DNA from: Candidatus Omnitrophota bacterium
GTDB taxonomy: Bacteria > Omnitrophota > Gorgyraeia > B26-G9
Length of the DNA stretch: 64,000 nt
Assembly (NCBI GenBank): GCA_018817165.1
Contig: JAHITY010000062.1
Location: forward strand, 26,958-90,957
Direction of reading: 5' to 3'
The position numbers and the translations under genes are program-made. The stretch's first letter is position 1. Each line of letters opens with the position of its first letter. This document shows positions 1 through 17,880 of the stretch, piece after piece. Below the pieces are notes generated by a model that saw nothing but the letters and a program-made list of their open reading frames with translations, searched no databases and was not told where the DNA came from.

Positions 1-945
1 ATTCCTCAAGACGGGAGATTTAAAGTAAGGCTTGGTGAAAAAGAAGTTGATTTTCGTGTTTCTGTTTTGCCAATAAGTTTTGGCGAAAAAGTAGTAATGC
101 GTGCTTTGGATAAAGCTAATCTTAGCATTGGTCTTGAAGCTTTAGGGTTTTTACCGCAAGCAATGGATGCTTTTGCTTACGCGGTTGCTCAGCCTTATGG
201 AATGATTTTGGTAACCGGTCCAACGGGAAGCGGAAAGTCTACCACTTTGTATTCAGTTTTAAATAAGCTTAATATCCCTGAGCGAAATTTGATTACAATT
301 GAAGATCCGGTTGAATATCAGGTTGATGGGATAACTCAGGTTCAGGTAAAAGCAGATGTTGGGCTTACTTTTGGCCAAGGACTGCGGGCAATTTTGCGTC
401 AGAATCCTGATATTCTGATGGTTGGAGAAATTCGTGATTTTGAGACAGGGGATATCGCGGTAAAAGCTGCTTTGACGGGAGCATTGCTCTTGAGCACTTT
501 ACATACTAATGATGCTCCGGGCGCGGTAACTCGAATGATCGATATGGGGATTGAGCCTTTTTTGATCGCGAGTAGTGTTATCGCGGTTGCCGCGCAGCGT
601 TTAGCGCGTTCAATTTGTAAGAACTGTAAGGAGCCTTATAAAATTCCTCAATCGGTTTTAGATCGCATGGGGCTGGTGGTGGATGCGGAAACAATTACAG
701 TATATCGCGGCAAAGGTTGTGATAATTGCGGCGGGACGGGATATAAAGGGCGTTTTGCGATTTTGGAAGTAATGGTGGTGAATGATCATATCAGAGAAAT
801 GATCATGAATCGAAATTCCAGTGATGAAATAAAACGTTATGCTCGAAAAAACGGGATGTTGACATTGCGTGATTCCGGTATTCAGAATTTTCTTAGAGGT
901 CAGACAACCTTGGAAGAAGTATTAAGAGTGACAGCTAAAGATTAA
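1..945 (+). CDS. pilB: Type IV pilus assembly ATPase PilB/GspE family, C-terminal part (5' end outside window)
   Basis: Frame is open from base 1. Walker A GPTGSGKSTTLYS, Asp box ITIEDPVEYQ, His box/RQNPDILMVGEIRD, and C-terminal tetracysteine CKNC...CDNC motif typical of GspE/PilB. Confidence 0.9.
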   Translation: MPQDGRFKVRLGEKEVDFRVSVLPISFGEKVVMRALDKANLSIGLEALGFLPQAMDAFAYAVAQPYGMILVTGPTGSGKSTTLYSVLNKLNIPERNLITIEDPVEYQVDGITQVQVKADVGLTFGQGLRAILRQNPDILMVGEIRDFETGDIAVKAALTGALLLSTLHTNDAPGAVTRMIDMGIEPFLIASSVIAVAAQRLARSICKNCKEPYKIPQSVLDRMGLVVDAETITVYRGKGCDNCGGTGYKGRFAILEVMVVNDHIREMIMNRNSSDEIKRYARKNGMLTLRDSGIQNFLRGQTTLEEVLRVTAKD

Positions 946-1047
946 ATTTTTGAAATTATTAAAATATAGTTATAAAAAAATATTTTTGTTGTATAATAAC
1001 TGTAAGTAAAATTAAAAACATCTGCTTTGATTTAATAAGGAGGAGAA

Positions 1048-2256
1048 ATGCCTTTATTTAAGTATGTCGCAAAAGATGAAGACGGCAATGCGGTTAATGA
1101 TCTGATTGAAGCAAAAGACGAAATGGTTGCTCTGGATATGCTCAGGGTTAAAAACCTGATCATTATCTCGATTACTGAACAAAAAGCCGAGAAAGTAGCC
1201 AAGGCAAAAATGGGGAGTAAAAAAATTAAACCGGAAGAGCTGGTTATTTTTTCCCGCCAGTTGGCTACAATGGTAAATGCTGGAATTCCGCTTGTGCAAA
1301 GTCTGGATATTTTAAGCGAACAGATGGAAAGTATAACTTTTAGAAATGTGGTAACCACGATCAGAAGTGATGTTGAATCAGGATCAAGTTTGTCCGCGGC
1401 TTTGGAAAAACATCCAAAAGTTTTTACTATGCTCTATACGAATATGGTAAGAGCCGGTGAAACCAGCGGTATGCTTGATGAAATTCTTGAGAGACTTGCC
1501 GGTTATTTAGAAAAAAGCGGGTCTTTGGCGCGTAAAGTAAAATCGGCAATGGTTTATCCAGCAGTTGTTTCACTGATGGCTATGGGTATTACTTTAGTCC
1601 TTTTACTTAAAGTTATTCCAACATTTAAAGAAATATTTGCTTCTTTGGGCGGAACGCTTCCCATGCCTACACAAATATTGATTAATATTTCAGATACATT
1701 ACAAGCTTATTTTATATATTGCGTTGCTGTGGTTGTTGGTTTAGGTTTTGCTGTTGCTAAGCTTGTGGAGACTCCTCAGGGTAAATTGCGTTTTGACCAG
1801 ATAAAACTTAGCTTGCCTGTTTTTGGGCCATTGCTGAGAAAAGTTGCTGTTGCCCGGTTTTCTCGAACCTTATCAACTTTGATTAGAAGCGGTGTTCCGA
1901 TTTTAGGCGCTTTGGAGATTGTGGGGAAAACATCGGGAAATGTGGTGATTGAAGCAGCGGTAGAGGGCGCTCGCGTGGGGATTCGTGAAGGTGAAAGTAT
2001 TTCTTCGCCCTTGGCAAAGAGTAAAGCTTTTCCTCCGATGGTAACAAGAATGATTTCTGTGGGAGAAGAATCTGGAGAACTGGAAAAAATGCTTACAAAA
2101 ATTGCTGATTTTTATGAAGATCAGGTTGATGCCGCGGTAAGCGGTTTGACTAGTTTGATTGAGCCATTGATTATTGCTTTTTTAGGTATTGTTGTGGGTT
2201 CAATTGTTATTGCGATGTTTTTACCGATATTCAAGATCAGCGAGCTAATTGGGTAA
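1048..2256 (+). CDS. pilC: Type IV pilus inner-membrane platform protein PilC (GspF family)
   Basis: 402 aa with two GspF-like repeats and three TM segments; AGGAGA RBS upstream; directly follows pilB. Confidence 0.9.
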   Translation: MPLFKYVAKDEDGNAVNDLIEAKDEMVALDMLRVKNLIIISITEQKAEKVAKAKMGSKKIKPEELVIFSRQLATMVNAGIPLVQSLDILSEQMESITFRNVVTTIRSDVESGSSLSAALEKHPKVFTMLYTNMVRAGETSGMLDEILERLAGYLEKSGSLARKVKSAMVYPAVVSLMAMGITLVLLLKVIPTFKEIFASLGGTLPMPTQILINISDTLQAYFIYCVAVVVGLGFAVAKLVETPQGKLRFDQIKLSLPVFGPLLRKVAVARFSRTLSTLIRSGVPILGALEIVGKTSGNVVIEAAVEGARVGIREGESISSPLAKSKAFPPMVTRMISVGEESGELEKMLTKIADFYEDQVDAAVSGLTSLIEPLIIAFLGIVVGSIVIAMFLPIFKISELIG

Positions 2257-2312
2257 ATTTATAAACTATTGATATATTTAAAGTTGTTTATGTTAAATAC
2301 TTTTAAAAAGTA

Positions 2313-2341
2313 TTGACAAATGATTGTAGCTCATGTATACT
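2313..2341 (+). promoter_or_regulatory. sigma70-like promoter (TTGACA-17 nt-TATACT) for the minor-pilin operon leader
   Basis: TTGACA at 2313-2318, 17-nt spacer, TATACT at 2336-2341; followed by a perfect 9-bp hairpin GGTAAAAAT/ATTTTTACC at 2360-2381. Confidence 0.45.
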
Positions 2342-2392
2342 TGTATTGTAGGAAAGTACAGGTAAAAATATAATTTTTACCCTTTTATCGAT

Positions 2393-2552
2393 AATGGCAA
2401 ACCCACTGAAAGGTGGGGGCGTTTCTCTGAGATTGCTTACTGGTTAATCCATCAATGAAACTTCGAATGATCTGCTAAATCATATGGGATCAGTCGGAGC
2501 AAAGCTACGGGTCTAATGGTGTTCCTTAATAGACGGCCGGGTTACCGAAATA
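2393..2552 (+). promoter_or_regulatory. c-di-GMP-I (GEMM)-like riboswitch candidate with an atypical ~75-nt insertion
   Basis: Hairpin GGCAAACC-CACU-GAAA-GGUGGG (2396-2418) resembles the GEMM P2 hairpin with GNRA tetraloop. GCAAAGCUACGGGUCUAAUGGUG (2499-2520) and CCGGGUUACCGAAAU (2537-2551) resemble the conserved P3 and 3' P1 segments recalled from the Vibrio Vc2 aptamer. Lies in the 380-nt pilC to minor-pilin spacer. Confidence 0.5.
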
Positions 2553-2577
2553 AAAAGGAAAAGCCAATGATAGCCGA

Positions 2578-2608
2578 GCTACCGAAATAAAAGGTAGGTC
2601 GGTTTTTT
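2578..2608 (+). terminator. Putative intrinsic terminator/expression platform of the leader RNA
   Basis: CTACC-GAAATAAAA-GGTAG hairpin followed by GTCGGTTTTTTGT. The motif ACCGAAATAAAA(A)GG occurs twice (2543-2557 and 2581-2594), compatible with alternative pairing. Confidence 0.4.
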
Positions 2609-2635
2609 GTCTAAAAAAGGGGAGTTGGATAATTT

Positions 2636-3106
2636 ATGCGAAGAAAAAAGGGGTTTACGCTGGTTGAAGTTTTAGTGTCTACATTAATTATGGCAATTGC
2701 GATTACTTCAACTTTACAGATTTTAATTTATTTGCTGCAGATGAATGAAGCCAATCAATCTTCAGTCACTTGTATGAATGAAGTTCAGGGGCGGATGGAT
2801 GCAATAAAAAGTGTGCTTTATGAAGATATTGTGGGTAGTTATAATCGGCTTAATTTTACGTCTGCTGAATTAACCAGTCGCGGAGTTCGGCATAGCGGAA
2901 TAATTTATGCTACTGAAATCCAGCCGCCTTTTCTGATTGATGTTAAAATAGTTGTTTGTTGGGAAAACAAAAATAGAATAATCGGTGAAGATACTAATTT
3001 GAATGGGTTGCTTGATGGCGGAGAAGATACAAATGGTAATGGGATTATTGATTCACCGACAATGATTGAAGGTACAATTTTAAATAGAGCGTATCAGGGG
3101 AGTTGA
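2636..3106 (+). CDS. Minor pilin with prepilin-type N-terminal cleavage/methylation domain
   Basis: N-terminus MRRKKG|FTLVEVLVSTLIMAIAI: class III signal peptide with Gly-1, Phe+1 and Glu+5; 156 aa. Confidence 0.8.
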   Translation: MRRKKGFTLVEVLVSTLIMAIAITSTLQILIYLLQMNEANQSSVTCMNEVQGRMDAIKSVLYEDIVGSYNRLNFTSAELTSRGVRHSGIIYATEIQPPFLIDVKIVVCWENKNRIIGEDTNLNGLLDGGEDTNGNGIIDSPTMIEGTILNRAYQGS

Positions 3107-3109
3107 AAA

Positions 3110-3754
3110 ATGTTGAAGAATAATAATGCTTATACATTGGCTGAACTTTTAGTTTCACTGGCAATTTTCAGTGTGGTTATTGGCTCATTAATGACGATCT
3201 TAATTTCCCAAAATGCTTTTTTTAGTCGGGCTTCAGCATCTGTTGAAGTCGGCGCTAATGCCCGAAAAGTAATGTCTTTGATGGTTAAAGAGCTGCGTTT
3301 GTCTAAAGTAGATCGGGTAGAGGTTTATGATAAAAATGGCAATAAGTATGATAAGGATACGCATCCAGATGGGGCGGATATTTATTTTAAGGTGCCGATA
3401 GATTGTGACAACGACGGAGATAGATTTGATGTGAATGGTAATATCGAATGGGGTTGTGAAGGCGGTTTGGAGTGGTTTATTGAATATTATTTTGACGAAG
3501 CTAATAAAAGAGTTATGCGCCGTTTATTAGACGCGTCTAAAATTGCTCAATCAGAAACTGTGATTGCGAATAATATTAGTGGTTTTTTAATTCAAGGATT
3601 TCATTATAATTTTACAAATAAAATATATGAACCAGATTCTGCGTGCAATGTTCTGCGAATAACGATTACTTCGGAAAGAGATTCTATTTCCGGGCGGATA
3701 TTAGATACTCCTTTGACTTATACTCTAACAAATCAAGTTTCATGGCGCAATTAA
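3110..3754 (+). CDS. Pilin-like protein with non-canonical prepilin leader (no Gly at -1)
   Basis: N-terminus MLKNNNA|YTLAELLVSLAIFSVVIG: a hydrophobic pilin helix with Glu at +5 only if cleavage follows Ala; 214 aa; next gene in the minor-pilin operon. Confidence 0.6.
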   Translation: MLKNNNAYTLAELLVSLAIFSVVIGSLMTILISQNAFFSRASASVEVGANARKVMSLMVKELRLSKVDRVEVYDKNGNKYDKDTHPDGADIYFKVPIDCDNDGDRFDVNGNIEWGCEGGLEWFIEYYFDEANKRVMRRLLDASKIAQSETVIANNISGFLIQGFHYNFTNKIYEPDSACNVLRITITSERDSISGRILDTPLTYTLTNQVSWRN

Positions 3755-3770: not shown

Positions 3771-6548
3771 ATGAAAATAATTATGAATAGAAAAGGAACG
3801 ATTCTTGTCGCGACTTATATGGTCTTATGCGTAATCATTGTTGTTGCCAGCTCTTTTTTTTCCATGGTGCTTACGGATAATAAAGCAGTTACCAGAAGTA
3901 ATGATGGAGCAAGAGCTTTGTCAAACGCGGAAAGAGGTATAGCTTATGCTTATTTTGAAGCCTATAATCTTGGCTGGGATTGGAAAACCCATGATTGGCA
4001 TAATGCTGCGCATAAAGTTGAACTTAAGGTAGTGCCTCCAGGCCAGCAGCTTAAAACCCGGCCGGATTGTGATTTTAATGCTGATGGTTTTTTTGTGCAT
4101 GATTCAGGTGATTTCATGATAAAAGCATATCCTGATATGACTCGGGAAAATGATACTGTAGTTGTTTCCATGGGGATTTGCGGCAAAGAGACTAAAGTAT
4201 TAATGTATTATTTAACCCGCAGGGGAATATATGATTTTTTTCTCTATACTCCGTATAATTTAGATCTTTATGCTGCTGTGGGCAATCATCCTGACTTGAA
4301 TGGCGGCGGGATTCATTCAAATGGCGATATTCATATTGATAGCGCGATGCGCCTTGAGGATATTTCTGAATTAAGTACCGGAGAAACCGGCAGAATTTAT
4401 TATGAAGGCAATCAATATATTCCACCTTATTACGCGGATCGTTTGGATGGAATTATGGATGGAAAATCCCCGATAACTAGGTTGGATAGATTGGGTGATG
4501 TATTTCGCGATGACCTTAAATTAGAAACGGGCCCTTTTGGTTATTATAATGCTTATGGTCAATGGAATTGGGATAGCGGAGCAACTTATTTTGTAAATAC
4601 ATCTATTGGTCTGCAAAATTCTTTTCAAAGCACTGAGGGGCATTTTGCCGGTTCAATATTAGATGTTTATAATGTTGCTCCAGGCAAGACGAATATTGTT
4701 AAAAATGACAGCACGGATACATTAAATTCGCAAAATTGTTGGATAAAACCATATATTCTTGATGCGGATGGTAATAAAGTTGCTACAACTTGGACGGAAA
4801 TCCCTGCGGAAATGGATACGCAATGGGAATGGGATAAATACGGTTGGAATAAATATGGCACAGTTGCCGGAGAACAGCCGGTCAGCTTTTATACCTATAA
4901 AGATGATGGAACTAGTGTGGGGGTTGCGAACACGTATTGGGAAATAAATGCCAGTAATAAAGTTGAAATGCTTGATCCGCCAATCGGCGGGACTCCGGAA
5001 CAGTGGGCGGCTTTTAATGCGGCGCATCCTAGCGCAAAGCAGTATTGGGATATGTATTCTACCCCGGAATTTTGGAATGCAACCTATGGCAATTCATCGC
5101 GTGAATACTATGCAGAGATGATCAATCCTGAAGTGCTTGATGGGACTTATGGGGATGAACGCTTAAATAATGATAGTATAATGGTTAATCATACTGATTC
5201 CTTAAAACAACCGAATGATTGGAAAAGTTTTCTTACTAAGTCAGGCTTAGATAATATCGTAAGAGATGGGAATACCGGCGGTGAGTATCTGTCACCGCCT
5301 GATTTTGATCAAACCTACTCCCGCTTAGCAGCGACTGATGGATTATTGCTCGATTTAGATTCTAGTTTTGATGGTGATTATGATGATTATGCTGAATGGC
5401 AGGCTGTGTTGGAAAAAAGTATTGATGCTGCGGTGGATAATCTGAATAAAGATACTAAACATAATGATGTGGCAAAAAAAGTTAAATTCATTAATACTTT
5501 TACCGGTGAATGGAATGTTGTTTTGGAAATTGATTTTGAGAATATGCAAAAAGAAAGCAAGTATCCGAAGAATGGGATTTTGTACACTCGCGTGCCGGTG
5601 AGAATTACCAATGCGGCCAAACTTGCTAGAGCAAAGCCCAAATACGGATTCACTATTTTAGGCGAAGAAAATGTCTATTTAAAAGGGGATTATAATACGG
5701 ATCAATGGGTAACCAGCGCGATTATTTCCAAAAAACGGATATTTACTTTATCGGATGATTTTAATGATCCCCAGGTTAAGCCGGCTTTGGAGCATTATCC
5801 TGACTATCCTTATATTTATGTTAAAAATGATGGCAGTGATAATTATGCCGAAGTTGCCAAAGGAACTGTGGGCGGACAATGGGTAATATTAGATTATTTG
5901 GATGCTGATGGATCAATTGATAAAATTGATTATTATCCGACAATTGATGATGTCAATGAAGCCAATTTGCGGGCAACAATTCTAAACAAAGAAGCGGATT
6001 ATCGCAGTGTGTTTAATAAGGATGATCCCACTGGTGCAGCAGAATCTACCTGGGTCTGGAGCGGAACCGGAGAAAGCTATACTTCCGGGATGATGCCGAA
6101 TAAAGTGCTAAATGATACAACTTATAATGCTTTGATGGCATCTAATCGCTGGTTAGAGTCGTATCAAAGTAATAAGGGGGATATTCTGGAAAATTGGTAT
6201 TATAATGACGGAACAAAAAATATTTCCAAAAAACGTAATTTAAACGGAGCTTTTTTTGTTTTAGAAAATGCGTCAGCCGGCGGTTTTGCCGCGGCAAATA
6301 ATGAATTTGTTGATTATCGCAATGAATCCGGGCTGGGGTATGATCAAAGAGGCCGTTCCCCGGGAACCGGCGATAATTATTCTTATAATCGGGGTTCTTT
6401 TCTGCGGACTTATGATGCGGCGGAATCTATTTCTTATGATGAACAGTTTAGAACTGCTACCAGAGCGCCTTCAGATGTGTTTTTTGGCGGGGCTGAGTCT
6501 TTATGGGCAGAATCAACAGAAGAGTTTTTCTATCAGATGAAATTTTAA
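3771..6548 (+). CDS. Large PilX-N-terminal-domain protein, candidate PilY1-like pilus tip/adhesin
   Basis: N-terminus MNRKGTILVATYMVLCVIIVVASSFFSMVLTDNK resembles a PilX_N helix. 925 aa, rich in W/Y/D/N/G (beta-rich). Sits in the minor-pilin operon where pilX/pilY1 normally sit. Confidence 0.5.
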   Translation: MKIIMNRKGTILVATYMVLCVIIVVASSFFSMVLTDNKAVTRSNDGARALSNAERGIAYAYFEAYNLGWDWKTHDWHNAAHKVELKVVPPGQQLKTRPDCDFNADGFFVHDSGDFMIKAYPDMTRENDTVVVSMGICGKETKVLMYYLTRRGIYDFFLYTPYNLDLYAAVGNHPDLNGGGIHSNGDIHIDSAMRLEDISELSTGETGRIYYEGNQYIPPYYADRLDGIMDGKSPITRLDRLGDVFRDDLKLETGPFGYYNAYGQWNWDSGATYFVNTSIGLQNSFQSTEGHFAGSILDVYNVAPGKTNIVKNDSTDTLNSQNCWIKPYILDADGNKVATTWTEIPAEMDTQWEWDKYGWNKYGTVAGEQPVSFYTYKDDGTSVGVANTYWEINASNKVEMLDPPIGGTPEQWAAFNAAHPSAKQYWDMYSTPEFWNATYGNSSREYYAEMINPEVLDGTYGDERLNNDSIMVNHTDSLKQPNDWKSFLTKSGLDNIVRDGNTGGEYLSPPDFDQTYSRLAATDGLLLDLDSSFDGDYDDYAEWQAVLEKSIDAAVDNLNKDTKHNDVAKKVKFINTFTGEWNVVLEIDFENMQKESKYPKNGILYTRVPVRITNAAKLARAKPKYGFTILGEENVYLKGDYNTDQWVTSAIISKKRIFTLSDDFNDPQVKPALEHYPDYPYIYVKNDGSDNYAEVAKGTVGGQWVILDYLDADGSIDKIDYYPTIDDVNEANLRATILNKEADYRSVFNKDDPTGAAESTWVWSGTGESYTSGMMPNKVLNDTTYNALMASNRWLESYQSNKGDILENWYYNDGTKNISKKRNLNGAFFVLENASAGGFAAANNEFVDYRNESGLGYDQRGRSPGTGDNYSYNRGSFLRTYDAAESISYDEQFRTATRAPSDVFFGGAESLWAESTEEFFYQMKF

Positions 6549-6582: not shown

Positions 6583-7005
6583 ATGGATATCAAAGTTAAA
6601 ATAACCTTGATCACAACCAGTGTTTTGCTAGTGCTGATTATTAGTACAGGTTTGTACAATACTCTTAATCCAAAAATAAGCTCTATAGTAGAGATTAAGC
6701 CGGTTATTACGCAAAGTTCGCAGAATAATGTGGCGCGGGTAAGACCTAAATTAGGGGAAAAATCAAATTTGCCGCTTAAATTAAATGATTATTATTTTCC
6801 GCAGAGAAATACTGTAAAAGCAAAAGTTGATCCTAATGGGGCTTTAAATCAAGAGGAGCAGGAAGAGGATGCTTTTTTTGAACCAGAGCAGCCGAAGCCT
6901 TTTGATATTATAGCAGACTTTGATGATGATTATGTTCAAGCTCCTGATGCAGCTGGGTCAATGGATTTAAATCCGAGCGGTGATTTGGAACCGCCTGAAG
7001 ATTAA
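6583..7005 (+). CDS. Hypothetical membrane-anchored protein with acidic C-terminus
   Basis: One N-terminal TM (ITLITTSVLLVLIISTGL) and an Asp/Glu-rich tail; no recognisable family. Confidence 0.35.
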   Translation: MDIKVKITLITTSVLLVLIISTGLYNTLNPKISSIVEIKPVITQSSQNNVARVRPKLGEKSNLPLKLNDYYFPQRNTVKAKVDPNGALNQEEQEEDAFFEPEQPKPFDIIADFDDDYVQAPDAAGSMDLNPSGDLEPPED

Positions 7006-7063: not shown

Positions 7064-8350
7064 TTGACTTTTTGTTCTTCCTCTTCTATAATAGGGGCAA
7101 TGCAAGTAGACAGAAATTCAATTTATTCAGTAATTTTTTTCCGATTTGCCATTGCCACAGTGATTTTTATTGTCAATACAACGCTTTTTGGCTTAGGGCG
7201 TATTCCGGTTTATTTTATAATTACCGCTATCTATGGTCTGACAATAATGTATTCCTTGCTGACTTTAGCAAATATCTTTAATCGGAAATTTCTTTATGTT
7301 CAGATTTTTCTTGATTTGATTATGGAAACATTATTGGTTCATTATACCGGAGGGGTTAATTCGGTATTGAGCATTTTGTTTCCCTTGTCGAGTATAGCGG
7401 CGAGTATTATAATTTCTCCGGCAGCGGCAATAATTATTGCTCTTTCAGGTAGTATTATGTATGCGGGCATAGTAACCTTGGAATCTTTGAATATTTTTTC
7501 TGTGCCTGCTCTGGGAGTAAACGCGCTGGTAACTCCCAGCGATTATGTTTTTTCTTTATTGTATTTTAGGGTTACAGTATTTATTGTGATCGGCTTTTTG
7601 AGTTCATACATTGCTGATCAGCTGAGAAAACAAAATAAAGTCGTTCTATCATTACAGGAGAAACTGCGCCGAGAAGACCGTTTGTCGGCTATCGGCAAAC
7701 TTGCGGCAAGTACAGCCCATGAGATCCGTAATCCATTGGCTTCAATATCCGGCTGTGTCGAGGCTTTAAAAGATACGATTTATTTAGAAGCAAAAGATAA
7801 AAAATTGTTTGATCTTATTTTAAAAGAAACAGCGCGTTTAAATGATATTATTAATGGTTTGCTTGAATATGTCAAACCGCGAAAACTTAAACTGGAAAAA
7901 ATATCAGTGGATGAGTTGATTGATGAAGTGGTATTTTTGCTTAAAAGCAGCAAGAAATTCAATCAAAATATAATTATAAAAAAAGAAAACTCTTTGCCTG
8001 AGGTAATGATTAGCTGTGATCCCCAGCAGATAAAGCAGGTTTTGTTTAATCTTTTGATTAATGCTGTGGAAGCCGTTGATAGTCAAGGGAAAATCATAAT
8101 CAAGCAGAATGTTAAGAAAGATATTAAGGGAATTGAATTAGATATAATTGATAATGGAATCGGCATGTCCAAAGAACAATTAGGTACTCTTTTTGAACCA
8201 TTTTCCAGTGGAAAGGATCAGGGGGTTGGTTTGGGGTTGCCGATAGTAAGTACAATTATAAAGGAACATGGCGGAACTATTAATATTCAAAGTGCTTTAG
8301 GTAAAGGGACGACATTTTCTATCTTTTTACCAGAAAAAATAAAGGAATAG
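7064..8350 (+). CDS. pilS: PilS-like sensor histidine kinase (polytopic membrane N-domain, HisKA, HATPase_c)
   Basis: About 6 TM segments; H-box AASTAHEIRNPLASISG; N/G boxes DNGIGMS...GLGLPIV. Probable TTG start at 7064 (ATG at 7100 is an alternative). Confidence 0.8.
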   Translation: MTFCSSSSIIGAMQVDRNSIYSVIFFRFAIATVIFIVNTTLFGLGRIPVYFIITAIYGLTIMYSLLTLANIFNRKFLYVQIFLDLIMETLLVHYTGGVNSVLSILFPLSSIAASIIISPAAAIIIALSGSIMYAGIVTLESLNIFSVPALGVNALVTPSDYVFSLLYFRVTVFIVIGFLSSYIADQLRKQNKVVLSLQEKLRREDRLSAIGKLAASTAHEIRNPLASISGCVEALKDTIYLEAKDKKLFDLILKETARLNDIINGLLEYVKPRKLKLEKISVDELIDEVVFLLKSSKKFNQNIIIKKENSLPEVMISCDPQQIKQVLFNLLINAVEAVDSQGKIIIKQNVKKDIKGIELDIIDNGIGMSKEQLGTLFEPFSSGKDQGVGLGLPIVSTIIKEHGGTINIQSALGKGTTFSIFLPEKIKE

Positions 8351-10008: not shown

Positions 10009-10024
10009 TGGCATATCCATTGCT
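10009..10024 (+). promoter_or_regulatory. Sigma-54 (-24/-12) promoter for the major pilin gene
   Basis: TGGCAT-atcca-TTGCT: GG at 10010-10011 and GC at 10022-10023 with the canonical spacing, about 65 nt upstream of pilA; the cognate activator PilR is encoded just upstream. Confidence 0.7.
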
Positions 10025-10730: not shown

Positions 10731-11279
10731 ATGAATTCAATAAAATCATTATTACTATTAAAATCGTTTAAGAATAAAATTAATCGATTTATCAAATCAG
10801 TAAATCTGAACAATAATAAATTAGGGTATAGTTTGGTGGAAATAATGATTGTTATCGCGATTATTGCTTTATTAGCCGCGGTTTCCATTCCTAATATGTT
10901 AAGAACTAAACTTAATGCCAATGAACAGGCGGCCCAAACCACTTTAAAAGAAATTTCTAAAGCATGTGAAAGTTATCGAATTACTCAGTCAGTAACTACT
11001 TATCCCGCGGTTATTGCTGACTTGACTGAGGCCGATGATCCATATATTTCCGCTTTGGTTTTTGATTTAAATGGGCATCGAGGCTATTTGTTTACTTTTA
11101 CTGCCGGACCAACTGCAGCATTCGAAGGGGTTATTCAGACATTTGATTGCGGCGCAAGGCCGGTTTCTGCTAATGTTACGGGAAACCGCTGGTTTGTAAT
11201 TGATGAAACCGGAGTATTAAGAGAAGATCTTGATGCTGATGGTATTGCTGATGCCTCAGATACGGCAATTCAGGATTAG
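10731..11279 (+). CDS. Type IV pilin paralog 2 with unusually long (about 32 aa) leader
   Basis: ...NNNKLG|YSLVEIMIVIAIIALLAAVSIPNML; two Cys in the C-terminal half; AAAGG RBS before the ATG at 10731. Confidence 0.75.
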   Translation: MNSIKSLLLLKSFKNKINRFIKSVNLNNNKLGYSLVEIMIVIAIIALLAAVSIPNMLRTKLNANEQAAQTTLKEISKACESYRITQSVTTYPAVIADLTEADDPYISALVFDLNGHRGYLFTFTAGPTAAFEGVIQTFDCGARPVSANVTGNRWFVIDETGVLREDLDADGIADASDTAIQD

Positions 11280-11327: not shown

Positions 11328-11804
11328 ATGCAATTGAAAATAAAACATGGATTTACATTGGTTGAAATATTAATCGTTGTCGCCATAATTGCCATGCTTG
11401 CAGCTTTGGCAATTCCTAATCTTATATACGCGCGTTTAAATTCAAATGAAGCCAATGCTCAAGGCACGTTAAAAGTTATTGGCAGTGCCTGTGAGAGTTT
11501 TCGGGTTGTTCAGGCAATTCCTCAATTTCCGGTTGATTTAGCGGCAGTAACTGATGCGACTCCGCCTTATTTAGCCGCGATTATTGATACCGCGACAACC
11601 GGGTCGCCGAAAAACGGTTATAATTATACGTATACGAGAATTGGTTTTCAGCAGTTTGTTTGCTGTGCAACACCAGAAACTTATCAGGTTACGGGAATCA
11701 GGACTTTTGCTTTAAACGAGAGCGGTGTGATCAGAGCGATTGACAATACTGCTGCGGTGGTAAATACGGAAGCTGCATATGATTTGATGACTCCGACCAA
11801 TTAA
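11328..11804 (+). CDS. Type IVa pilin paralog 3
   Basis: MQLKIKHG|FTLVEILIVVAIIAMLAALAIPNL; Cys pair present (SACESFR...FVCCATPE). Confidence 0.85.
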   Translation: MQLKIKHGFTLVEILIVVAIIAMLAALAIPNLIYARLNSNEANAQGTLKVIGSACESFRVVQAIPQFPVDLAAVTDATPPYLAAIIDTATTGSPKNGYNYTYTRIGFQQFVCCATPETYQVTGIRTFALNESGVIRAIDNTAAVVNTEAAYDLMTPTN

Positions 11805-12144
11805 ATATTTTTATGAAATGATTATTTTACGTAAGTCATTTGAAGTAATGATTTTCATTGACAAAAATAAAAAAAAATGCTAAATTAAAATAGTAATAAA
11901 TAGAGGAAGAATTTTTACTAAAAAATGGAGTTTGAGAAATGACAGGGAAATGTCTTTCTAGAAAAAGAAGTATACCCTCTAATTCTATGTATGACTGCAA
12001 TTATTTTTTCCCCTCATATTTTTTAAAACTCATATCTCTTGTGTATAATAAAGCATACAGCTTTTCGATTAAGCCTGAAAATGATTCAAATCTTATTATT
12101 TGTGGGAATTGTCGAACCAGTTTAAAAAAAAGGTTTAGGTATTA

Positions 12145-13416
12145 ATGGACAAAGTGATAACTTTATTGCCATTTATCAGCATTTTATTTTTAATTGTTTT
12201 TTGGGTTTTTAGTCCGAATATGGGGGCGGCTCTATTAACAATTACTATTCCTTTTGTTATTTTTGCCGTTTATTCTAATTTAAAAAGAAAAGAATTACTC
12301 TCGGAATTAAGGGATACTGTTAAATCTTTTCAAGCGGAAAAAGAAGAAATTATAAAAGAAATTCAGAAAAAAGAAAAAAAACAAAGAGCGCAAAATGAAG
12401 AATTAAGACAGTTTGGAAAAAGTCTTTCCACGGCAATTAATAAAGATCAGCTTTTGCGTTTAATTGTAAAAAATTTCAGCAAGGTTACTGAATCTAAAGA
12501 AGGCGAAAGCCAATGTTTTCTTTTAAGCCGGCAGCAAGGGACAGATGAGTTTATTTACGAAGCCGGACATAATTTTGACAGCAATACCTTGAAATCAATG
12601 AGGTTTAGTGAGAATGATGAAATTATTCAGGCAGTAGTAAAAAGCAAAAAAATCAATACTTTTATTAGTGATATATTTGGCGGAGATTCAAATATTAGAT
12701 ATTTTCTTAAAGAGGAACGGACAACTTATTTATCGCAATTAGGATCACTGGCGCTTATCCCTTTAATAATGGAAGAGGAAGTGTGGGGAATTATTGTAAT
12801 TTTTTGCCGAGAAGGGGCTGCGGCTAATATAAAAAATGATGAAGCTTTTTTTCGGCTTTTGGTCGCGCAGGCTTCAATTGCTTTAGGTAGCGCGATTCAT
12901 CGCGGTCTTGCTTCGATCGATAAACTAACTCAGTTGTATAATCGTACTTTTTTGCAAAAACGAATGAATGAAGAAGTCGAATTTTGTAATCGGCAGCTTC
13001 TGCCTTTAAGTTTGTTGATGCTGGATATTGATCATTTTAAATTAATTAATGATACTTATGGGCATCAAGAAGGCGATATGGTGCTTAAAAAAATAGCGCA
13101 GATTATCAGTAAAAGTGTGAGATTAACTGATATTTGCGCGCGTTATGGCGGAGAAGAATTTGTTATTGTTTTACCGGGAATTGAGGAAATCGCGAACGAT
13201 AAATTTTCTATAGCTGAAAAATTAAGGCAGGCTGTTGAAAGTTCTGATTTTGTTGTGCTGGGTGATAAGCATATAAAAGTTACTATTAGTATTGGGGTTA
13301 CTGTAGGCAGATATCCTGAGGATAAAGACTTAGGGATGGACGCGTTTATCCAAAAAGCGGATCTATTGCTCTATAAAGCAAAAGAAGCTGGTAGAAATAG
13401 GGTGTGTTATAGTTAA
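12145..13416 (+). CDS. Membrane-anchored GAF-GGDEF diguanylate cyclase
   Basis: Two N-terminal TM helices, a coiled-coil, a GAF-like middle domain, and a C-terminal GGDEF domain with an intact active site RYGGEEFVIVLPG. A sigma70-like promoter TTGACA-17-TAAATT sits at about 11868-11896. Confidence 0.85.
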   Translation: MDKVITLLPFISILFLIVFWVFSPNMGAALLTITIPFVIFAVYSNLKRKELLSELRDTVKSFQAEKEEIIKEIQKKEKKQRAQNEELRQFGKSLSTAINKDQLLRLIVKNFSKVTESKEGESQCFLLSRQQGTDEFIYEAGHNFDSNTLKSMRFSENDEIIQAVVKSKKINTFISDIFGGDSNIRYFLKEERTTYLSQLGSLALIPLIMEEEVWGIIVIFCREGAAANIKNDEAFFRLLVAQASIALGSAIHRGLASIDKLTQLYNRTFLQKRMNEEVEFCNRQLLPLSLLMLDIDHFKLINDTYGHQEGDMVLKKIAQIISKSVRLTDICARYGGEEFVIVLPGIEEIANDKFSIAEKLRQAVESSDFVVLGDKHIKVTISIGVTVGRYPEDKDLGMDAFIQKADLLLYKAKEAGRNRVCYS

Positions 13417-13452: not shown

Positions 13453-15123
13453 ATGTTTCAAAAAAACAATGATTCTATAGGACTGGAAATAGGTGACGGT
13501 TTAGTTAAGGCAATGCATATGCGTTGTTCGGCTAAAGAAAACAGGTTGCTGGGATACGAGATTGTACCAGTGAATTTTCGCGAAGGTCGCCAAGGAATTG
13601 TCAATGCAATGAATGAGGTATTGACGCGTCTTGCCCTTAATAAGAAAAAGCATAAAGTTAATATCTCTGTTTCTGGCGAATCAGTTATGGTTCGAGATAT
13701 CCATTGGCCGCAAATGGCTGATGAGGAGATCCGTAAGGCATTGAAATTTGAAGTGGAACGACAGGTCCATTATAAAACTGATGAAATTGTATTTGATTAT
13801 TATTCTGTTTTGGATAAAACGATTGCTGAAACAAAAACAAGAGTTATTCTGGTTGCTGCTAAAAAAGATCTTATTGAAAATTATGTTAGCCTGATTGATT
13901 CGACGGGTTTTCTGCCGGGTTTTATTGAAGTAGACACCTTTAGTCTGCTGAATTGTTTTTATGTTAATGGGCCAAAACTGGCTGCTGAAAAAACAATAGC
14001 GATTATTAATATAGGCATGGAAGTTACTAATATTGATATAATTCGAGGGAGAATTGTCGGTTTAACAAAAGATGCTTTTGTTGCCTGGAGCAATTTGATT
14101 GATGCTTTGCCGGAAGATGTTGAATTAGACTTTTCGGATGTGACTTCGCTTAAAGGCGTGATGGGTACTGATGATATTTATGAATTGAGTCTGTTTATCA
14201 TGAACGCGCTTTCAAATCAGATAAGGCGTACGATTGAATTTTATGAAAGTCAGGGACGGGATACGGTAGAGGAAATATACTTAAGCGGCAAAGTGGCAAT
14301 GTATAAGAATCTGGATAAGTATCTGCAGAATATTCTGGGATTACAGGTTACTATTTGGGATCCGCTGGCTAATGTGCAATATGACCCCAAATTGTTCGCG
14401 GACAAGAAAATAAAGGAACAGGCTTTAATGCTGGCAGTTTGTACTGGGCTTGCCTGCTTTAGATCTTTTAATATAAATTTGGCTAGCAATAAAAAAGAAG
14501 TTAAAAAAAGCAAGCTGATGAAGTTTGTTAATCAAAATAAGATATTGTTTTATCTGGTATCAATTGCAATTATTTGTTTGATCGGGGTTTGGGTCATTTT
14601 GAGTAGTCAGCTTAAAATTAAAGAAGTTAATAAACAAAAATTGCTTGATCAAAATCAAAAATTGGAAGGGATTTTGCAGGACATTGAAAATTTAAAACAG
14701 GCTAGGTTTACTTTGCAGCAGCATATGCAGATAGCTAAGGCTTTACTTTCCCGAAGAATAATCTGGGGTAAAAAATTTCATCAAATAAGTACTAGTTTAC
14801 CGGAAGAAATGTGGCTGACGGATTTATATCTCAAAGACGCGTCAGTATCTCCAGCTAAGAGTCAATTTGAAGTAATAACTGATATTGGTGGGGCTGATTC
14901 TTTTAGGCCAAAGGATACTGTCCAGATCTTAATCATCAAAGGAACGGCATTTTCCAAAGCAAGTGATAATATGCTTAAAATAATAAATGATTTTATTAAT
15001 GCTTTAAAGTATAACCAGGAATTTGCTAAAGATTTTTCAACAATAGAATTAAAGCGCTCCCAACGTGTTGATATCGGTGATAGAGCGATTATGAAATTTA
15101 GTATGGAGTGTGTTTTAAAATAA
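13453..15123 (+). CDS. pilMN: Fused PilM-PilN (actin-like ATPase domain, then a TM helix, then a PilN-like periplasmic coiled-coil domain)
   Basis: Residues 1 to about 345 are PilM-like. Then comes FNINLASN (resembling the PilN INLLP motif) and a TM helix ILFYLVSIAIICLIGVWVILSS, followed by a coiled-coil and a C-terminal domain. 556 aa in total. Confidence 0.75.
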   Translation: MFQKNNDSIGLEIGDGLVKAMHMRCSAKENRLLGYEIVPVNFREGRQGIVNAMNEVLTRLALNKKKHKVNISVSGESVMVRDIHWPQMADEEIRKALKFEVERQVHYKTDEIVFDYYSVLDKTIAETKTRVILVAAKKDLIENYVSLIDSTGFLPGFIEVDTFSLLNCFYVNGPKLAAEKTIAIINIGMEVTNIDIIRGRIVGLTKDAFVAWSNLIDALPEDVELDFSDVTSLKGVMGTDDIYELSLFIMNALSNQIRRTIEFYESQGRDTVEEIYLSGKVAMYKNLDKYLQNILGLQVTIWDPLANVQYDPKLFADKKIKEQALMLAVCTGLACFRSFNINLASNKKEVKKSKLMKFVNQNKILFYLVSIAIICLIGVWVILSSQLKIKEVNKQKLLDQNQKLEGILQDIENLKQARFTLQQHMQIAKALLSRRIIWGKKFHQISTSLPEEMWLTDLYLKDASVSPAKSQFEVITDIGGADSFRPKDTVQILIIKGTAFSKASDNMLKIINDFINALKYNQEFAKDFSTIELKRSQRVDIGDRAIMKFSMECVLK

Positions 15124-15132: not shown

Positions 15133-15726
15133 ATGAAAAAAGAACTTTCTAAAAAAGATCAGACATTAATCGCGGGAATTATTGGAATTTTTATTCTAGT
15201 GGTTCTGTCTTTTGTGACCGTATTCCAGCCTTTAATTACAAAAATTTTAAATTATAATAAACAGGAAAAGACAATGAGTGAACAGTTGGCTAAAGTTGAA
15301 AGCATGTCAGCTGATAAAGAAAAACTATCAAGGGAATTAGAAATTATTACTAAGAAAATAGATTATTATGAAAAAAAATTACCGCAACAGACTGATATCC
15401 CGGAAATACTCGCGGAATTGATTAAAATAGGCGAAAAAAGCAATGTTACATTTATTATGATTGAGCCGCAGAACACAAAGCAGATAGCTGTGGGAGATTC
15501 TCAGAATAAAACATATTTAGAAATCCCCATAGAAATTAAGCTCAAGGCAGGGTATCATCAGTTCGCGGCTTTTGTTAATGGTGTGGAAAATTTTCAAAGA
15601 TTCATGAAAGTGGATAATATAAAGATTACTTCTAAAGATGACAGCGCTGAGAAATTACATGAGGCGAGTTTAACGGTTAGCGCATTTGCTATAGAAAGAA
15701 AAAATACTGATGAAAAAACAAATTAA
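15133..15726 (+). CDS. pilO: PilO-like inner-membrane pilus alignment protein
   Basis: N-terminal TM, coiled-coil and a small periplasmic domain; position between pilMN and pilP. Confidence 0.6.
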   Translation: MKKELSKKDQTLIAGIIGIFILVVLSFVTVFQPLITKILNYNKQEKTMSEQLAKVESMSADKEKLSRELEIITKKIDYYEKKLPQQTDIPEILAELIKIGEKSNVTFIMIEPQNTKQIAVGDSQNKTYLEIPIEIKLKAGYHQFAAFVNGVENFQRFMKVDNIKITSKDDSAEKLHEASLTVSAFAIERKNTDEKTN

Positions 15727-16150
15727 ATCGAAAGTAATTTTATTAGTGATATTAATAATCATTATTAATTCAATGGCTTTAGGGCTTAATGCATTGTTAA
15801 CTGATGCTTTTGCGCAACAACCTATAGTAAGTGATGAATCAACGGAGGTATTTGTTTATACTCGGAATGAAAGACCTGATCCGTTTGTTAGTTTAATAAA
15901 TAAAAGCGGAGATTTTAAAGATAATGTTCCCAGCGCAAGAGAAGAAATGATGGATTTAGTTCAACTGATTAAAGTTGATGGAATCCTTTGGGATTCTCAA
16001 ATGCCCTTGGTAATGATCAATAAAGAAATTCATAAAATCGGTGATATAGTCAATAGGCTGACTGTTAAAGAAATTACTGCTGAATCAGTTACTTTTGCGT
16101 ATTCAGATTTAACGTATACAATTACTATTATAGAAAAGAAATATTTTTGA
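15710..16150 (+). CDS. pilP: PilP-like protein
   Basis: Signal-anchor N-terminus plus a small beta domain; overlaps pilO and the pilQ start (ATGA); position in the operon. Confidence 0.5.
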   Translation: MKKQIKSKVILLVILIIIINSMALGLNALLTDAFAQQPIVSDESTEVFVYTRNERPDPFVSLINKSGDFKDNVPSAREEMMDLVQLIKVDGILWDSQMPLVMINKEIHKIGDIVNRLTVKEITAESVTFAYSDLTYTITIIEKKYF

Positions 16151-17880
16151 ATATCAAGGAGGAGTTAATGGACGTTAAAAATTTAATCTCAAGGAAGAGA
16201 ATTACACTGTGTTTGTTTTTATTGAGCATGATCTGCTGTTTTTCTTTAAACTCAGAGCTGAAATTCGCGTATGCTCAGCAGAGCGTTGAAAATCAATCAG
16301 ATTTTTCAGAACAGCTGAAAAATAATGATACTAGTGAGGATAAATTAATTTCGATTACTCTTAAGGAAACGGATATTAGAGAAGTGCTTAATATCCTGGC
16401 ATTTAAGGGGGGAGTCAATATCGTTGCGGGTGATGATGTTGTGGCGAAAATATCTGTTCAGCTTAAAGATGTTCCTTGGGAGCAGGCGCTGGATGTTATT
16501 TTGAAGACTTATAATTTCACTTATAAGCGCGATGGAAGCCTGATTCGGGTCATGAGCCTGGCTCGCGCATTGGAAGAAGAAGGTAAGACACCGCTTAAAA
16601 CTAAAATATTAGCGCTTAATTTTGCTGATGTTGTAGAATTGAAAGAGTCATTGAACAAAATGTTGAGTAAAAGAGGCACAATGGAGGTTGATAAACGCAC
16701 TAATTCTTTGATTATTACCGATATCCCGGAAATGGTAGATGCAATTGAGGAATCAGCAACTAGGCTGGATACTCTGACGCCACAGGTATTGATTGAAGCG
16801 ATGATGGTTGATATTAAAATAACTGACAAAAATCAATGGGGAACATTATTGAATGTATTAGATTTAAAAAATAGTCCGAATGGTTTAGACTCAGTATTGT
16901 CTGACGGCTCAGGCACTGGTCTTTTAAACTTTGGCACAATAACAGATAATTTTGATTTAACTGGGGCAATCGTGTCCCTGGTTTCACAAGGTATGGCTTC
17001 AATCCTGGCTAATCCAAAGGTGCTTACTTTAGATAATCAAAAGGCAATGATAGAAATAATCACGGAAATTCCTTATCAAGAGTCTGTTGATTCCGGTGGA
17101 GCAATTACTACTACGATTAAGTTTAAAGATGCGGGAATTAAATTGTCAGTAACTCCGCATATTACCAGTGGCAGATTTATTTCGATGAATGTTATGCCTG
17201 AACAAAGTTTTCAGTCTGGTTTTGCTGAAAACACAACGCAGCCGATTATTGATAAACGCTCGGCAGAAACAAATCTTCTGGTTAAAGATGGCCAGACAAT
17301 TGTGATTGGCGGTTTAAGACAAACTACTGATAACATCGATCAAGGAAAAATTCCTTTTTTTGGGGATATACCCTTTTTCGGATTGTTTTTTAGAAGCAAA
17401 TTAAGAACAAAAGTGGAGACAGAATTGGTTATTTTTGTTACTCCGCATATTGTGGAAACAGCGCTTTTAAGTGATCGAGAAATAGAATTGTTTGAAAAAC
17501 TAGATAATACCGCTAGGTTATGTTTTGACGAACGGTCTGAAATGGAAAAATTCAAAGCTTTTATGAATATTAAAAAAGATGTAAATAAAGCTGAAAAAAT
17601 TGCTGAGCATGAAAGTAAACGCTTACGCTTAGAACAAGAAGTAAAATCAGATCCCTTGATTGAGGCCAATTATCAATCAACAGCTTCGGAACCACTAAAA
17701 ACGCAATTACGCCAGAGGCGTAAGCAAATTATCGAAAAAGATGCGCCGGCACCGGTTCAAGAGGTTCCGGTAGTTTTTGAGCAGGATTTTTCATCCGAGG
17801 TTTATCAACAAAACAAAGCTTTAGAACTGGAAGCTGATCAATTTCGCAAATCAATGGATTTGCTGAAAAGTGAACATTAA
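16147..17880 (+). CDS. pilQ: Type IV pilus secretin PilQ
   Basis: Signal peptide, N0/N1-like domains, and the secretin C-domain signature IPFFGDIPFFGLFFRS...ELVIFVTPHIV; 577 aa. Confidence 0.9.
   Translation: MNIKEELMDVKNLISRKRITLCLFLLSMICCFSLNSELKFAYAQQSVENQSDFSEQLKNNDTSEDKLISITLKETDIREVLNILAFKGGVNIVAGDDVVAKISVQLKDVPWEQALDVILKTYNFTYKRDGSLIRVMSLARALEEEGKTPLKTKILALNFADVVELKESLNKMLSKRGTMEVDKRTNSLIITDIPEMVDAIEESATRLDTLTPQVLIEAMMVDIKITDKNQWGTLLNVLDLKNSPNGLDSVLSDGSGTGLLNFGTITDNFDLTGAIVSLVSQGMASILANPKVLTLDNQKAMIEIITEIPYQESVDSGGAITTTIKFKDAGIKLSVTPHITSGRFISMNVMPEQSFQSGFAENTTQPIIDKRSAETNLLVKDGQTIVIGGLRQTTDNIDQGKIPFFGDIPFFGLFFRSKLRTKVETELVIFVTPHIVETALLSDREIELFEKLDNTARLCFDERSEMEKFKAFMNIKKDVNKAEKIAEHESKRLRLEQEVKSDPLIEANYQSTASEPLKTQLRQRRKQIIEKDAPAPVQEVPVVFEQDFSSEVYQQNKALELEADQFRKSMDLLKSEH

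Follow-up and report, generated by a model that had tools for sequence, protein, structure and literature searches.

How do the Omnitrophota control the pili with which they may hold on to other cells? These bacteria are uncultured, mostly ultra-small and thought to attach to or prey on other cells, and type IVa pilus (T4aP) gene clusters, which are near-universal among them, are their most widespread candidate attachment device (PMC10066038). To date, our search of a searchable library of the literature has found no paper linking Omnitrophota pili to control by a riboswitch for cyclic di-GMP (c-di-GMP), and the text of PMC10066038 contains neither the word 'riboswitch' nor the word 'diguanylate'. 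In this report, we analyzed a 64-kb stretch of DNA of a Candidatus Omnitrophota bacterium (the window), in which positions 1-17880 hold a pilus locus. Our main finding is that this region probably is the main T4aP gene cluster of the organism, and that the leader RNA of its minor-pilin genes would act as a terminator switch responsive to c-di-GMP. Going by the sequence, we consider these two statements, taken jointly and leaving aside the sign of the switch, to be true with good probability.

The cluster in fact begins about 4.6 kb before window position 1 and extends to position 17880. Its gene order starts with a receiver gene, pilT, a gene for a stand-alone MshEN protein, two pilB genes and pilC, followed by a promoter, a c-di-GMP-I riboswitch and a terminator; it continues with two minor pilins, a 925-aa tip-type protein, a 140-aa open reading frame (ORF), pilS, pilR and a sigma-54 promoter, and ends with three pilins, another promoter, a GGDEF cyclase gene and pilM(N)OPQ, after which rimP, nusA and infB come next, from 17986. 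All features given below by window coordinates lie on the + strand. The upstream part was read from a 73-kb ENA metagenome contig (L001; loci compared in this study are cited by such numbers), which encodes the same PilC and overlaps the window by 12,256 bases with 100% identity (window 1-12256 corresponds to L001 8954-21209). A PilC scan of species-representative genomes returned 80 loci at 97-48% identity, mostly from Omnitrophota, and the nearest of them (97-77% identity) are nearly all labelled Candidatus Omnitrophota.

The leader between pilC and the first minor-pilin gene had been called GEMM-like in a sequence-only reading of this DNA, and this call was correct. The c-di-GMP-I family (RF01051), with a match at 2386-2549 scoring 37.7 bits against a gathering score of 35, is the single Rfam family above its gathering score in the whole window; homologous leaders stand directly before a minor-pilin or tip-protein gene, and mostly immediately after pilC, in 12 Omnitrophota loci (L002-L009, L011, L012, L202 and L203); and the helices covary. 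On RF01051, orthologues with an expanded aptamer, as in the window, score 50.3 (L004), 38.8 (L003) and 40.3 (L202) bits, and compact orthologues reach 76.5 (L203), 71.8 (L009) and 67.7 (L011) bits on RF03167, a member of the same clan. A covariance model of our own, R1, built from 28 generic metagenomic GEMM-I sequences and three compact orthologues, scores the window leader at 41.9 bits (E 1e-6), with a range of 38-83 bits across loci. With R1 the element is recovered from 14 loci anchored on pilC, of which the window is one, and from two anchored on GGDEF; in each it follows pilC, immediately precedes a gene for a pilin-type or tip protein, or does both. Two R1 loci, L014 and L020, belong to a more distant Omnitrophota clade; there a canonical GEMM-I (L014 11288-11378 and L020 11325-11415; 53-54 bits on R1) follows pilC and is itself followed by a terminator and then by a second sigma-70-like promoter before a pilin gene, with no PilSR pair.

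The leader is preceded by a sigma-70-like promoter, TTGACA-17-TATACT, at 2313..2341 (11 of 12 consensus positions), and the motif recurs at equal distance in most orthologous leaders. The predicted aptamer (2381..2558) has an extended P1, a P2 hairpin and a P3 that, in the conformation we call the A-form, is closed by the first of two 3' halves, copy A. Pairing and covariation were counted on an alignment of 13 leaders. The P2 hairpin CCCACU-GAAA-GGUGGG (2402..2417), with its GNRA tetraloop, is paired in 98.7% of cells and covaries at five of its six pairs; for the A-form with the terminator, 93.7% of cells are paired and nine pairs have compensatory changes. In 500 shuffles the covariation never rose to the observed score, and helices slid by one to three columns were only 26-50% paired. 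The GAAA loop, the GC-AAAGC junction, the 5' strand of P3 and the G equivalent to G20 are invariant or nearly so. Aligning the leader with the Rfam consensus gives, as equivalents of the ligand-contact nucleotides G20, A47 and C92 of the Vibrio cholerae Vc2 aptamer, G2396 (12 of 13 leaders), A2501 (13 of 13) and, at the third position, C2537 and C2574 in copies A and B, respectively (13 of 13). In the tetraloop receptor, the GAAA loop and the 5' side UCUAA are invariant, and the generic 3' side A-U-G-A-Y is obtained only with copy B. By its scores, its invariant core and its covarying helices, this leader is a genuine c-di-GMP-I riboswitch, conserved among relatives and equipped with a terminator.

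Its class within the clan was assigned by the binding site. The c-di-GMP-I-GGC family (RF03167) was considered and rejected: the window scores 33 bits on it against a gathering score of 59, and the junction reads GC-A-AAGC in the leaders where the RF03167 consensus is GACGC-G-AA, a column that the Rfam alignment marks as a mismatch. The compact orthologues exceed the RF03167 threshold and score best on that family; nevertheless, A stands in 13 of 13 leaders at the column where RF03167 has G, and the binding-site signature therefore assigns the leader to the canonical c-di-GMP-I class despite these scores. The A20 that marks cGAMP riboswitches (GEMM-Ib) was not found either: the window has G at this position, 12 of 13 leaders do, and A occurs only in the first copy of L003.

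A possible source of the ligand is encoded in the same cluster. The gene at 12145..13416 specifies a putative membrane-anchored sensor diguanylate cyclase, with a GGDEF domain that includes an I-site (GGDEF 154 bits, TIGR00254 184 bits) and a weak GAF-like domain. It had been described beforehand as a GAF-GGDEF enzyme; the GGDEF part, and its place between the pilins and pilM, are borne out, whereas the GAF domain stays below threshold (20.1 bits versus a cutoff of 22.4), homologues at 36-40% identity carrying precomputed GAF matches. Eighteen orthologues have in common an invariant GGEEF motif at 335-339 (G335, G336, E338 and F339), the metal and substrate residues D294/D296 and N302/D303 and the RxxD I-site pair R326/D329, and the embedded cyclase is predicted to be active and product-inhibited. 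The place of the gene between pilin and pilM is exactly retained in orthologues of 100% to 54% identity; at 67% and 54% the order is pilR, pilin(s), GGDEF, pilM, pilO, pilP, pilQ, (rimP), nusA and infB. A sigma-70-like promoter lies upstream of the gene (11858..11886; 10 of 12 positions, extended TG), and in 5/5 loci a TTGACA-type promoter stands before GGDEF or, where a small MerR-like gene comes first, before that gene. Given this conserved promoter, a strong terminator downstream of the last pilin in two relatives and a gap of only 37 nt to pilM, GGDEF probably is the first gene of a GGDEF-pilMNOPQ unit and not part of the pilin transcript. The MerR/HTH_17-like gene, of 62 aa, stands between the last pilin and GGDEF in L011 (20433-20618) and L202 (9792-9980) and is absent from the window, where a 68-codon ORF at 11939-12145 was examined and is probably not a gene, having no similarity to it.

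Two features set the window leader apart from a standard GEMM-I aptamer. One is an insertion of two hairpins (2421..2498; i1 2421-2461 and i2 2462-2498), which the Rfam alignment treats as an 82-nt insertion and which separates the post-P2 GGC from the GC-AAAGC junction. Ten expanded orthologues have insertions unrelated in sequence and length, each of which folds into the same two-hairpin layout with hairpins of 17-60 nt; the insertion of L202 is about 135 nt long, and the three compact orthologues (L009, L011 and L203) have none. We took as background the generic GEMM-I elements recovered by a metagenome scan with an 18-mer of the core (91 unique sequences). The 18-mer proved generic to GEMM-I across many phyla, bringing in few additional Omnitrophota leaders, and nearly all of the 123 metagenomic matches had the canonical spacing of 25-26 nt, with one clear similar insertion. 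The insertion is lineage-specific, and rare among generic GEMM-I relatives.

The other feature is a duplication of the 3' half, that is, of the 3' strand of P3 together with the 3' strand of P1. Copy A (AAUAGACGGCCGGGUUACCGAAAUAAAAAGG) occupies 2528..2558. Copy B (AAUGAUAGCCGAGCUACCGAAAUAAAAGG), at 2566..2594, doubles as the 5' strand and loop of an intrinsic terminator (2572..2608; a 12-pair stem with one G-G mismatch, a 9-nt loop and a U run), whose 3' strand, strand C, occupies 2593-2608 together with the U run; this terminator is paired in 91% of cells and has three compensatory pairs. Pairing is conserved both in the A-form with the terminator and in the alternative closed by copy B, the B-form (93.7% and 91.2%, respectively), and P3 with copy A is 99.2% paired. 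Minimum-free-energy folds contain one further helix (2517..2566), between the apical loop of P3 (2517-2527) and the linker (2555-2566), with compensatory changes at 4 of 10 pairs and 85.8% of cells paired; this loop-linker helix excludes the extended P1 of the A-form and can coexist with nothing but the B-form or an intermediate leading to it. The 5' half of the aptamer could therefore close with either of two near-identical 3' halves. Closing with copy A would free copy B to form the terminator with strand C, and closing with copy B, together with the loop-linker helix, would sequester the 5' strand of the terminator and the first two bases of its 3' strand; this terminator is the element through which c-di-GMP, acting on the leader RNA, would control the minor-pilin/tip operon. 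The same duplicated 3' half and terminator also occur in two unrelated metagenomic operons (L082, about 1440-1790 on the + strand, and L085, about 440-790 on the reverse strand), upstream of genes for a small secreted protein and a PilZ-like protein (RRxxxR and NxSxxG motifs, read by eye), so that the duplicated platform design is not restricted to pilus genes.

Does c-di-GMP turn the tip genes on or off? Constrained folding, pair counts, the receptor consensus and the covariance-model alignments point both ways, and we lean slightly to on: it is somewhat probable that c-di-GMP locks the B-form and allows read-through into the tip genes, in which case copy A would be a decoy that stabilizes the terminated state without ligand. 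An ON switch needs a ligand-free default that is terminated, and this is what the full-length fold provides, since the A-form with the terminator is the minimum by 3-11 kcal/mol in 11/11 leaders. Copy B also reproduces the generic receptor-side consensus A-U-G-A-Y (A in 83/91 and U in 62/91 of the background sequences), whereas copy A always has an A where the generic receptor side usually has U; with copy A the distal stem of P3 has only 2-4 bp, a long one being formed in the B-form alone; and in the single-copy relative L093 the only 3' half overlaps the 5' strand of the terminator, which is the classical ON layout. Several observations, here and in the next paragraph, weigh against our reading. 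P3 of the A-form is perfectly paired in the 13 leaders (the 99.2% given above), whereas the B-form has a conserved C-A mismatch in 10/13; the A-form is transcribed first, leaving about 45 nt more time for ligand binding; and Rfam and R1 both align the A-form. These fit an OFF switch in which c-di-GMP binds the A-form and blocks invasion by copy B, so that copy B and strand C terminate transcription before the tip genes, and in which, without ligand, the loop-linker helix nucleates the displacement of copy A by copy B, the B-form then being the antiterminator. Such a switch also agrees with the class I c-di-GMP riboswitches of C. difficile, which are OFF switches (PMC11477304), and with constrained folding of 11 leaders, by which the two forms are near-isoenergetic, within about 5 kcal/mol in either direction, before strand C is made. 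It is a possibility to be taken seriously, for the OFF mechanism with ligand and for its ligand-free branch alike, although we would not call it probable: the full-length minimum being already terminated, read-through without ligand would have to be purely kinetic, copy A lacks the generic A-U receptor dinucleotide and leaves a short distal stem, and the single-copy relative L093 uses the ON layout. Finally, both forms keep the ligand-contact nucleotides, and the ligand might consequently not discriminate between them.

What the leader senses, and where the signal comes from, call for similar weighing. The Rfam score of the window is just 2.7 bits over threshold, which is explained by the alignment having to skip the 82-nt insertion. 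That insertion lies two nucleotides from the pocket adenine, between the post-P2 GGC and the GC-A2501 junction, and would be a reason to suspect another ligand, for example 3'3'-cGAMP or an unknown dinucleotide, as would the best scores of the compact orthologues on the c-di-GMP-I-GGC variant family, whose ligand is to our knowledge not established, and the A at the G20-equivalent position in the paralogous L003 copy (11339-11505). We consider another ligand very improbable, however, since G at the G20 equivalent in 12/13 leaders and A at the GGC-variant column in 13/13 make up the canonical c-di-GMP signature, and since the compact and expanded forms are orthologous, with cores otherwise identical. 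As for the source, other cyclases elsewhere in the genome could supply c-di-GMP, a diffusible molecule, and GGDEF might be a mere neighbor that feeds the global pool or another target, with the riboswitch reading the global pool and no local circuit. The gene's own promoter in 5/5 loci and the terminators after the last pilin in two relatives are compatible with this, as is a 38%-identical GGDEF homologue that sits in a ribosomal-protein neighborhood, elsewhere in its genome. Yet the pilin-GGDEF-pilM position is kept from 100% to 54% identity, only 37 nt separate the gene from pilM, and in a more distant clade of Omnitrophota the cluster includes another GGDEF gene, adjacent to pilT, all of which makes a mere neighbor rather unlikely. 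Two further points belong on the opposing side: the published c-di-GMP motif of MshEN domains is not matched, in strict or relaxed form, by any of the three MshEN-bearing proteins of the cluster, and pilD, PilZ and phosphodiesterases were not seen, in a search short of genome-wide. The sequence-only reading had proposed a locally wired c-di-GMP circuit. Its first half, a c-di-GMP input at this locus, is upheld by the conserved riboswitch, the intact cyclase, the synteny and the upstream MshEN candidates; as for the second, we infer that locally made c-di-GMP is the signal sensed by the leader, the embedded cyclase being its likely, though not proven, source.

The genes that the switch would control form a compact module. 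Two minor pilins (2636..3106, N_methyl 33 bits; 3110..3754, N_methyl 26 bits) are followed by a 925-aa clade-specific protein with a pilin-like N-terminus (3771..6548) and by the 140-aa ORF (6583..7005), which has an N-terminal hydrophobic segment and an acidic tail, no family match, and weak orthologues at the same position, and which is the last gene of the riboswitch-controlled module. The 925-aa protein had been labelled PilY1-like, a label that we abandon: it has no Pfam match even at E up to 5, no NCBIfam match and an empty profile search of PDB sequences, and PilY1 is absent from its Foldseek matches in the PDB. The PilY1/PilC C-terminal beta-propeller domain, presumably Pfam PF05567, was accordingly not recognized in it. 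Among 5.8 billion proteins it has 23 homologues; those with a source name are all Omnitrophota/Omnitrophica hypothetical proteins, except the weakest ('bacterium'), which carries PilX_N. An AlphaFold model computed from a 19-sequence alignment (mean pLDDT 67, residues 180-500 confident) starts with a helix (7-67) and continues with a beta sheet, a pilin-like arrangement. The top Foldseek match is ComZ of Thermus thermophilus (PDB 6QVI), which is likewise large, begins with a pilin-type helix and has its gene next to those of small minor pilins; this match is not significant (E 0.027, TM 0.07-0.13) and is accompanied by no sequence similarity, the 925-aa family being clade-specific. From the model and the gene context, we propose that the 925-aa protein is a candidate clade-specific large tip protein or minor pilin-type protein.

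The module varies among relatives. In L012 (11586-20086), the cassette of two minor pilins and a protein of about 925 aa is present in two tandem copies with a single riboswitch before the first, which suggests modular, exchangeable tip sets. L003 (93% PilC identity) has a second riboswitch copy (11339-11505) whose A at the G20-equivalent position is a cGAMP-type signature, followed by an extra cassette at 11613-14805 that encodes two pilins (135 and 194 aa) and proteins of 567 and 140 aa; the same extra cassette in L006 (3791-7015) has no detectable GEMM-I. In L202 (843-1160) the riboswitch stands directly before the homologue of the 925-aa protein, not before minor pilins.

The major pilin appears to be under a separate regulator. 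A PilS-like sensor histidine kinase (7064..8350; HisKA and HATPase_c) and a PilR-like sigma-54 activator (8352..9704; REC, Sigma54_activat at 239 bits, HTH_8) precede a sigma-54 -24/-12 element (TGGCATATCCATTGCT, 10009..10024) located 67 nt before the ATG of the first pilin gene. The 6TM_PilS domain of the kinase is below threshold in the window (21.8 versus a cutoff of 27) and is detected in the L202 orthologue. The number of -24/-12 elements in the window is by itself at chance level; an equivalent element nevertheless lies 74-123 nt before the first pilin ATG in 7/7 related loci, including one at 62% PilC identity, and the consensus sigma-54 promoter that had been read from the sequence, with its one mismatch, is thereby confirmed. 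PilS-PilR-sigma-54 control of pilA is established in Pseudomonas, Myxococcus and Geobacter, where kinase and sigma-54 regulator likewise lie immediately upstream of a pilin with a -24/-12 promoter; at the sequence level we see no difference, apart from the weakly recognizable 6TM domain here, and by this paradigm PilS/PilR with sigma-54 would drive the major pilin. The candidate major pilin, pilA1 (10091..10570; N_methyl 35 bits), is followed by a 17-pair terminator (10588-10625) and by a sigma-70-like site (10643-10671) before pilin paralogue 2 (10731..11279), which has N_methyl at residues 28-52 and whose true start is probably internal; paralogue 3 lies at 11328..11804 (N_methyl 30 bits). 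Between the pilR stop and the sigma-54 promoter, at 9712-9803, there is an imperfect inverted repeat (GTAGGGGCGCTGC and GCACGGCCCCTAC, separated by about 90 nt), for which a terminator, a binding site of a regulator and a small repeat element are all conceivable readings.

The remaining genes are those of the pilus machinery, called with Pfam and NCBIfam models. The window opens within pilB (1..945, the C-terminal 314 aa; T2SSE, E 2e-113), truncated by the window start; the full gene, at L001 8183-9898, begins 771 nt before window position 1, encodes 571 aa (TIGR02538, 642 bits) and is the second of two tandem pilB paralogues. It is followed by pilC, for the platform protein (1048..2256; T2SSF twice, E 7e-66). 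At the other end of the cluster are pilM (13453..15123; PilM_2 118 bits, TIGR01175 146 bits), whose product has a C-terminal membrane extension that is PilN-like by architecture; pilO (15133..15726; PF04350, 76 bits); an ORF at the pilP position (15710..16150), whose weak T2SSB match of 21.5 bits is below cutoff and whose position is conserved; and pilQ for the secretin (16147..17880; Secretin 163 bits, Secretin_N and STN). The models thus agree with the sequence-only reading for pilB, pilC, the minor pilins, pilS/pilR, the three pilins, GGDEF, pilM, pilO and pilQ; PilM, PilO and the secretin are above cutoffs, and the PilN half of 'pilMN' and PilP are putative assignments by position and architecture, weaker than had been stated. 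Most genes of the reported contiguous, co-directional series are therefore confirmed. Co-directionality as evidence for an operon was rejected, because every long ORF of the whole 64-kb window is on the + strand; the G+C content of the window is low (0.34-0.40) and its GC skew is positive throughout.

That same reading had presented the locus as self-contained, with neither pilT nor pilD in the window. For pilT this is true of the window alone and fails for the locus, the absence being an artefact of the window edge. In L001 the receiver, a PilT/PilU-family ATPase, the MshEN protein, the first PilB and the second PilB are encoded upstream of the window in this order and on the same strand as the cluster: the receiver has 136 aa; pilT (L001 4735-5799, 354 aa; TIGR01420, 488 bits versus a cutoff of 319) ends about 3.2 kb upstream of the window; the stand-alone MshEN protein has 204 aa (NF053729, 85.1 bits); and the first full PilB has 572 aa. 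PilB, PilC and PilT of a T4aP system are thus all encoded, PilT outside the window. A pilT gene directly upstream was to have meant an ordinary split locus; the locus is instead more complete for it, not split. The statement on pilD holds: a search of the window and of 9 kb upstream of it revealed no peptidase A24-like gene, and no PilZ protein was found in the same interval. In five relatives (L004, L008, L009, L011 and L012) the receiver-pilT pair is preceded, at about 3000-4300, by another gene of the PilT family (55-60% identity), where the window's own contig has a radical-SAM gene.

MshEN domains are established c-di-GMP receptors on pilus ATPases, as in V. cholerae MshE and the GSPII domains of Thermus PilF (PMC5013675, PMC11731258). 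In our cluster three proteins exceed the cutoff of 38 bits for NF053729, the stand-alone protein at 85.1 bits and two others at 49.1 and 39.1 bits, the N-terminal domains of both PilB paralogues being matches to this MshE-related c-di-GMP domain; all three align to the MshE and PilF structures. They differ from these receptors in the published motif, a tandem 24-residue RLGxx(L/V/I)(L/V/I)xxG(L/V/I)(L/V/I)xxxxLxxxLxxQ (PMC5013675), which we tried as strict and relaxed patterns. The stand-alone protein, which is not an ATPase, comes nearest, with 9/11 and 8/11 key positions and a spacer of the correct 5 residues; for the PilB paralogues the counts are 7+5 and 8+5. We make no claim that PilB binds c-di-GMP, given this pattern test; protein-level sensing by MshEN domains is possible, not strongly supported, and the stand-alone protein is its best candidate as a receptor.

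Some genes in the rest of the window deserve mention. A stand-alone H-NOX protein gene (47553-48074; HNOB, 143 bits) lies between tgt and a gene for a 1214-aa glycosyltransferase, with no adjacent partner gene; H-NOX proteins often control cyclases or kinases. About 23 kb away from the pilus cluster, a lone pilin-like gene (40971-41372; N_methyl, 29 bits) comes right after a gene for an EF-G-like protein. A 1651-aa surface-type protein (54860-59815) has four FlgD_ig domains, PPC domains and CHU_C-type C-terminal signal domains, and a smaller FlgD_ig protein is encoded at 60709-61854; both FlgD_ig genes adjoin a gene for a PD40 beta-propeller protein.

How does this locus compare with known systems? 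Each component is of a known kind; the circuit is of a known kind in a new phylum, and the riboswitch variant is new. The closest circuit is that of C. difficile, in which the c-di-GMP-II ON riboswitch Cdi2_4 drives the type IV pilus cluster CD3513-03 (PMC11477304). Both have a c-di-GMP riboswitch and a transcription terminator in the leader of pilus genes; Cdi2_4 is of class II, belongs to a monoderm and is an ON switch on the major pilin operon, whereas the Omnitrophota leader is of class I (GEMM-I), belongs to a diderm with a secretin and precedes a minor-pilin/tip module, the major pilin being under PilSR and sigma-54. At the level of the RNA, the leader shares with canonical RF01051 (V. 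cholerae Vc2, type 1) P1, P2 with its GAAA loop, the GC-AAAGC junction, P3 and the ligand contacts. It differs in two junction hairpins that turn an internal loop into a four-way junction (about 1/123 generic matches) and in a duplicated 3' half, one copy of which doubles as a terminator strand. In Geobacter, GEMM-Ib riboswitches for 3'3'-cGAMP reportedly occur upstream of pilMNOPQ and of cytochrome genes; there, too, a GEMM-I fold accompanies T4aP genes, and the diderm host has its pilA under PilSR and sigma-54. The Geobacter RNAs have A20 and respond to cGAMP, whereas the window RNA has G, with A only in the extra copy of L003. The three-state adenine riboswitch add of Vibrio vulnificus, in which a binding-incompetent fold is said to compete with a binding-competent apo fold, is a conceptual analogy only, since add acts on translation and shifts the register of P1 in its alternative fold, whereas the Omnitrophota leader has a whole second copy of the 3' half and termination as its output.

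New are the phylum, the split logic, by which a riboswitch serves the tip module and sigma-54 the major pilin, and the conservation of an embedded cyclase; newest of all is the riboswitch architecture, expanded and duplicated as it is. It is conceivable, as a speculation we would not press, that the leader is an undescribed c-di-GMP-I architecture in which a four-way-junction aptamer and a three-strand platform with a decoy 3' half pass through three states (decoy, ligand-bound and terminated) and give a sharper response, and that cyclic dinucleotides could select the adhesive pilus tip on display. The idea of tip selection comes from some of the relatives, which carry at least two alternative riboswitch-associated cassettes of minor pilins and a giant tip protein, one of them with an A20 aptamer.

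Whatever becomes of that idea, the locus provides a concrete, testable wiring for the pili of these bacteria, with PilSR and sigma-54 on the major pilin, a riboswitch on the tip module and a cyclase embedded in the cluster. The orthologous compact and expanded aptamers, with their duplicated 3' half, amount to a natural experiment on what the GEMM-I core tolerates near its pocket; the same leaders show how expression platforms are built, and they can be tested in vitro without culturing. If the selection of tips is true, cyclic dinucleotides would choose the adhesive tip shown by host-dependent nanobacteria.

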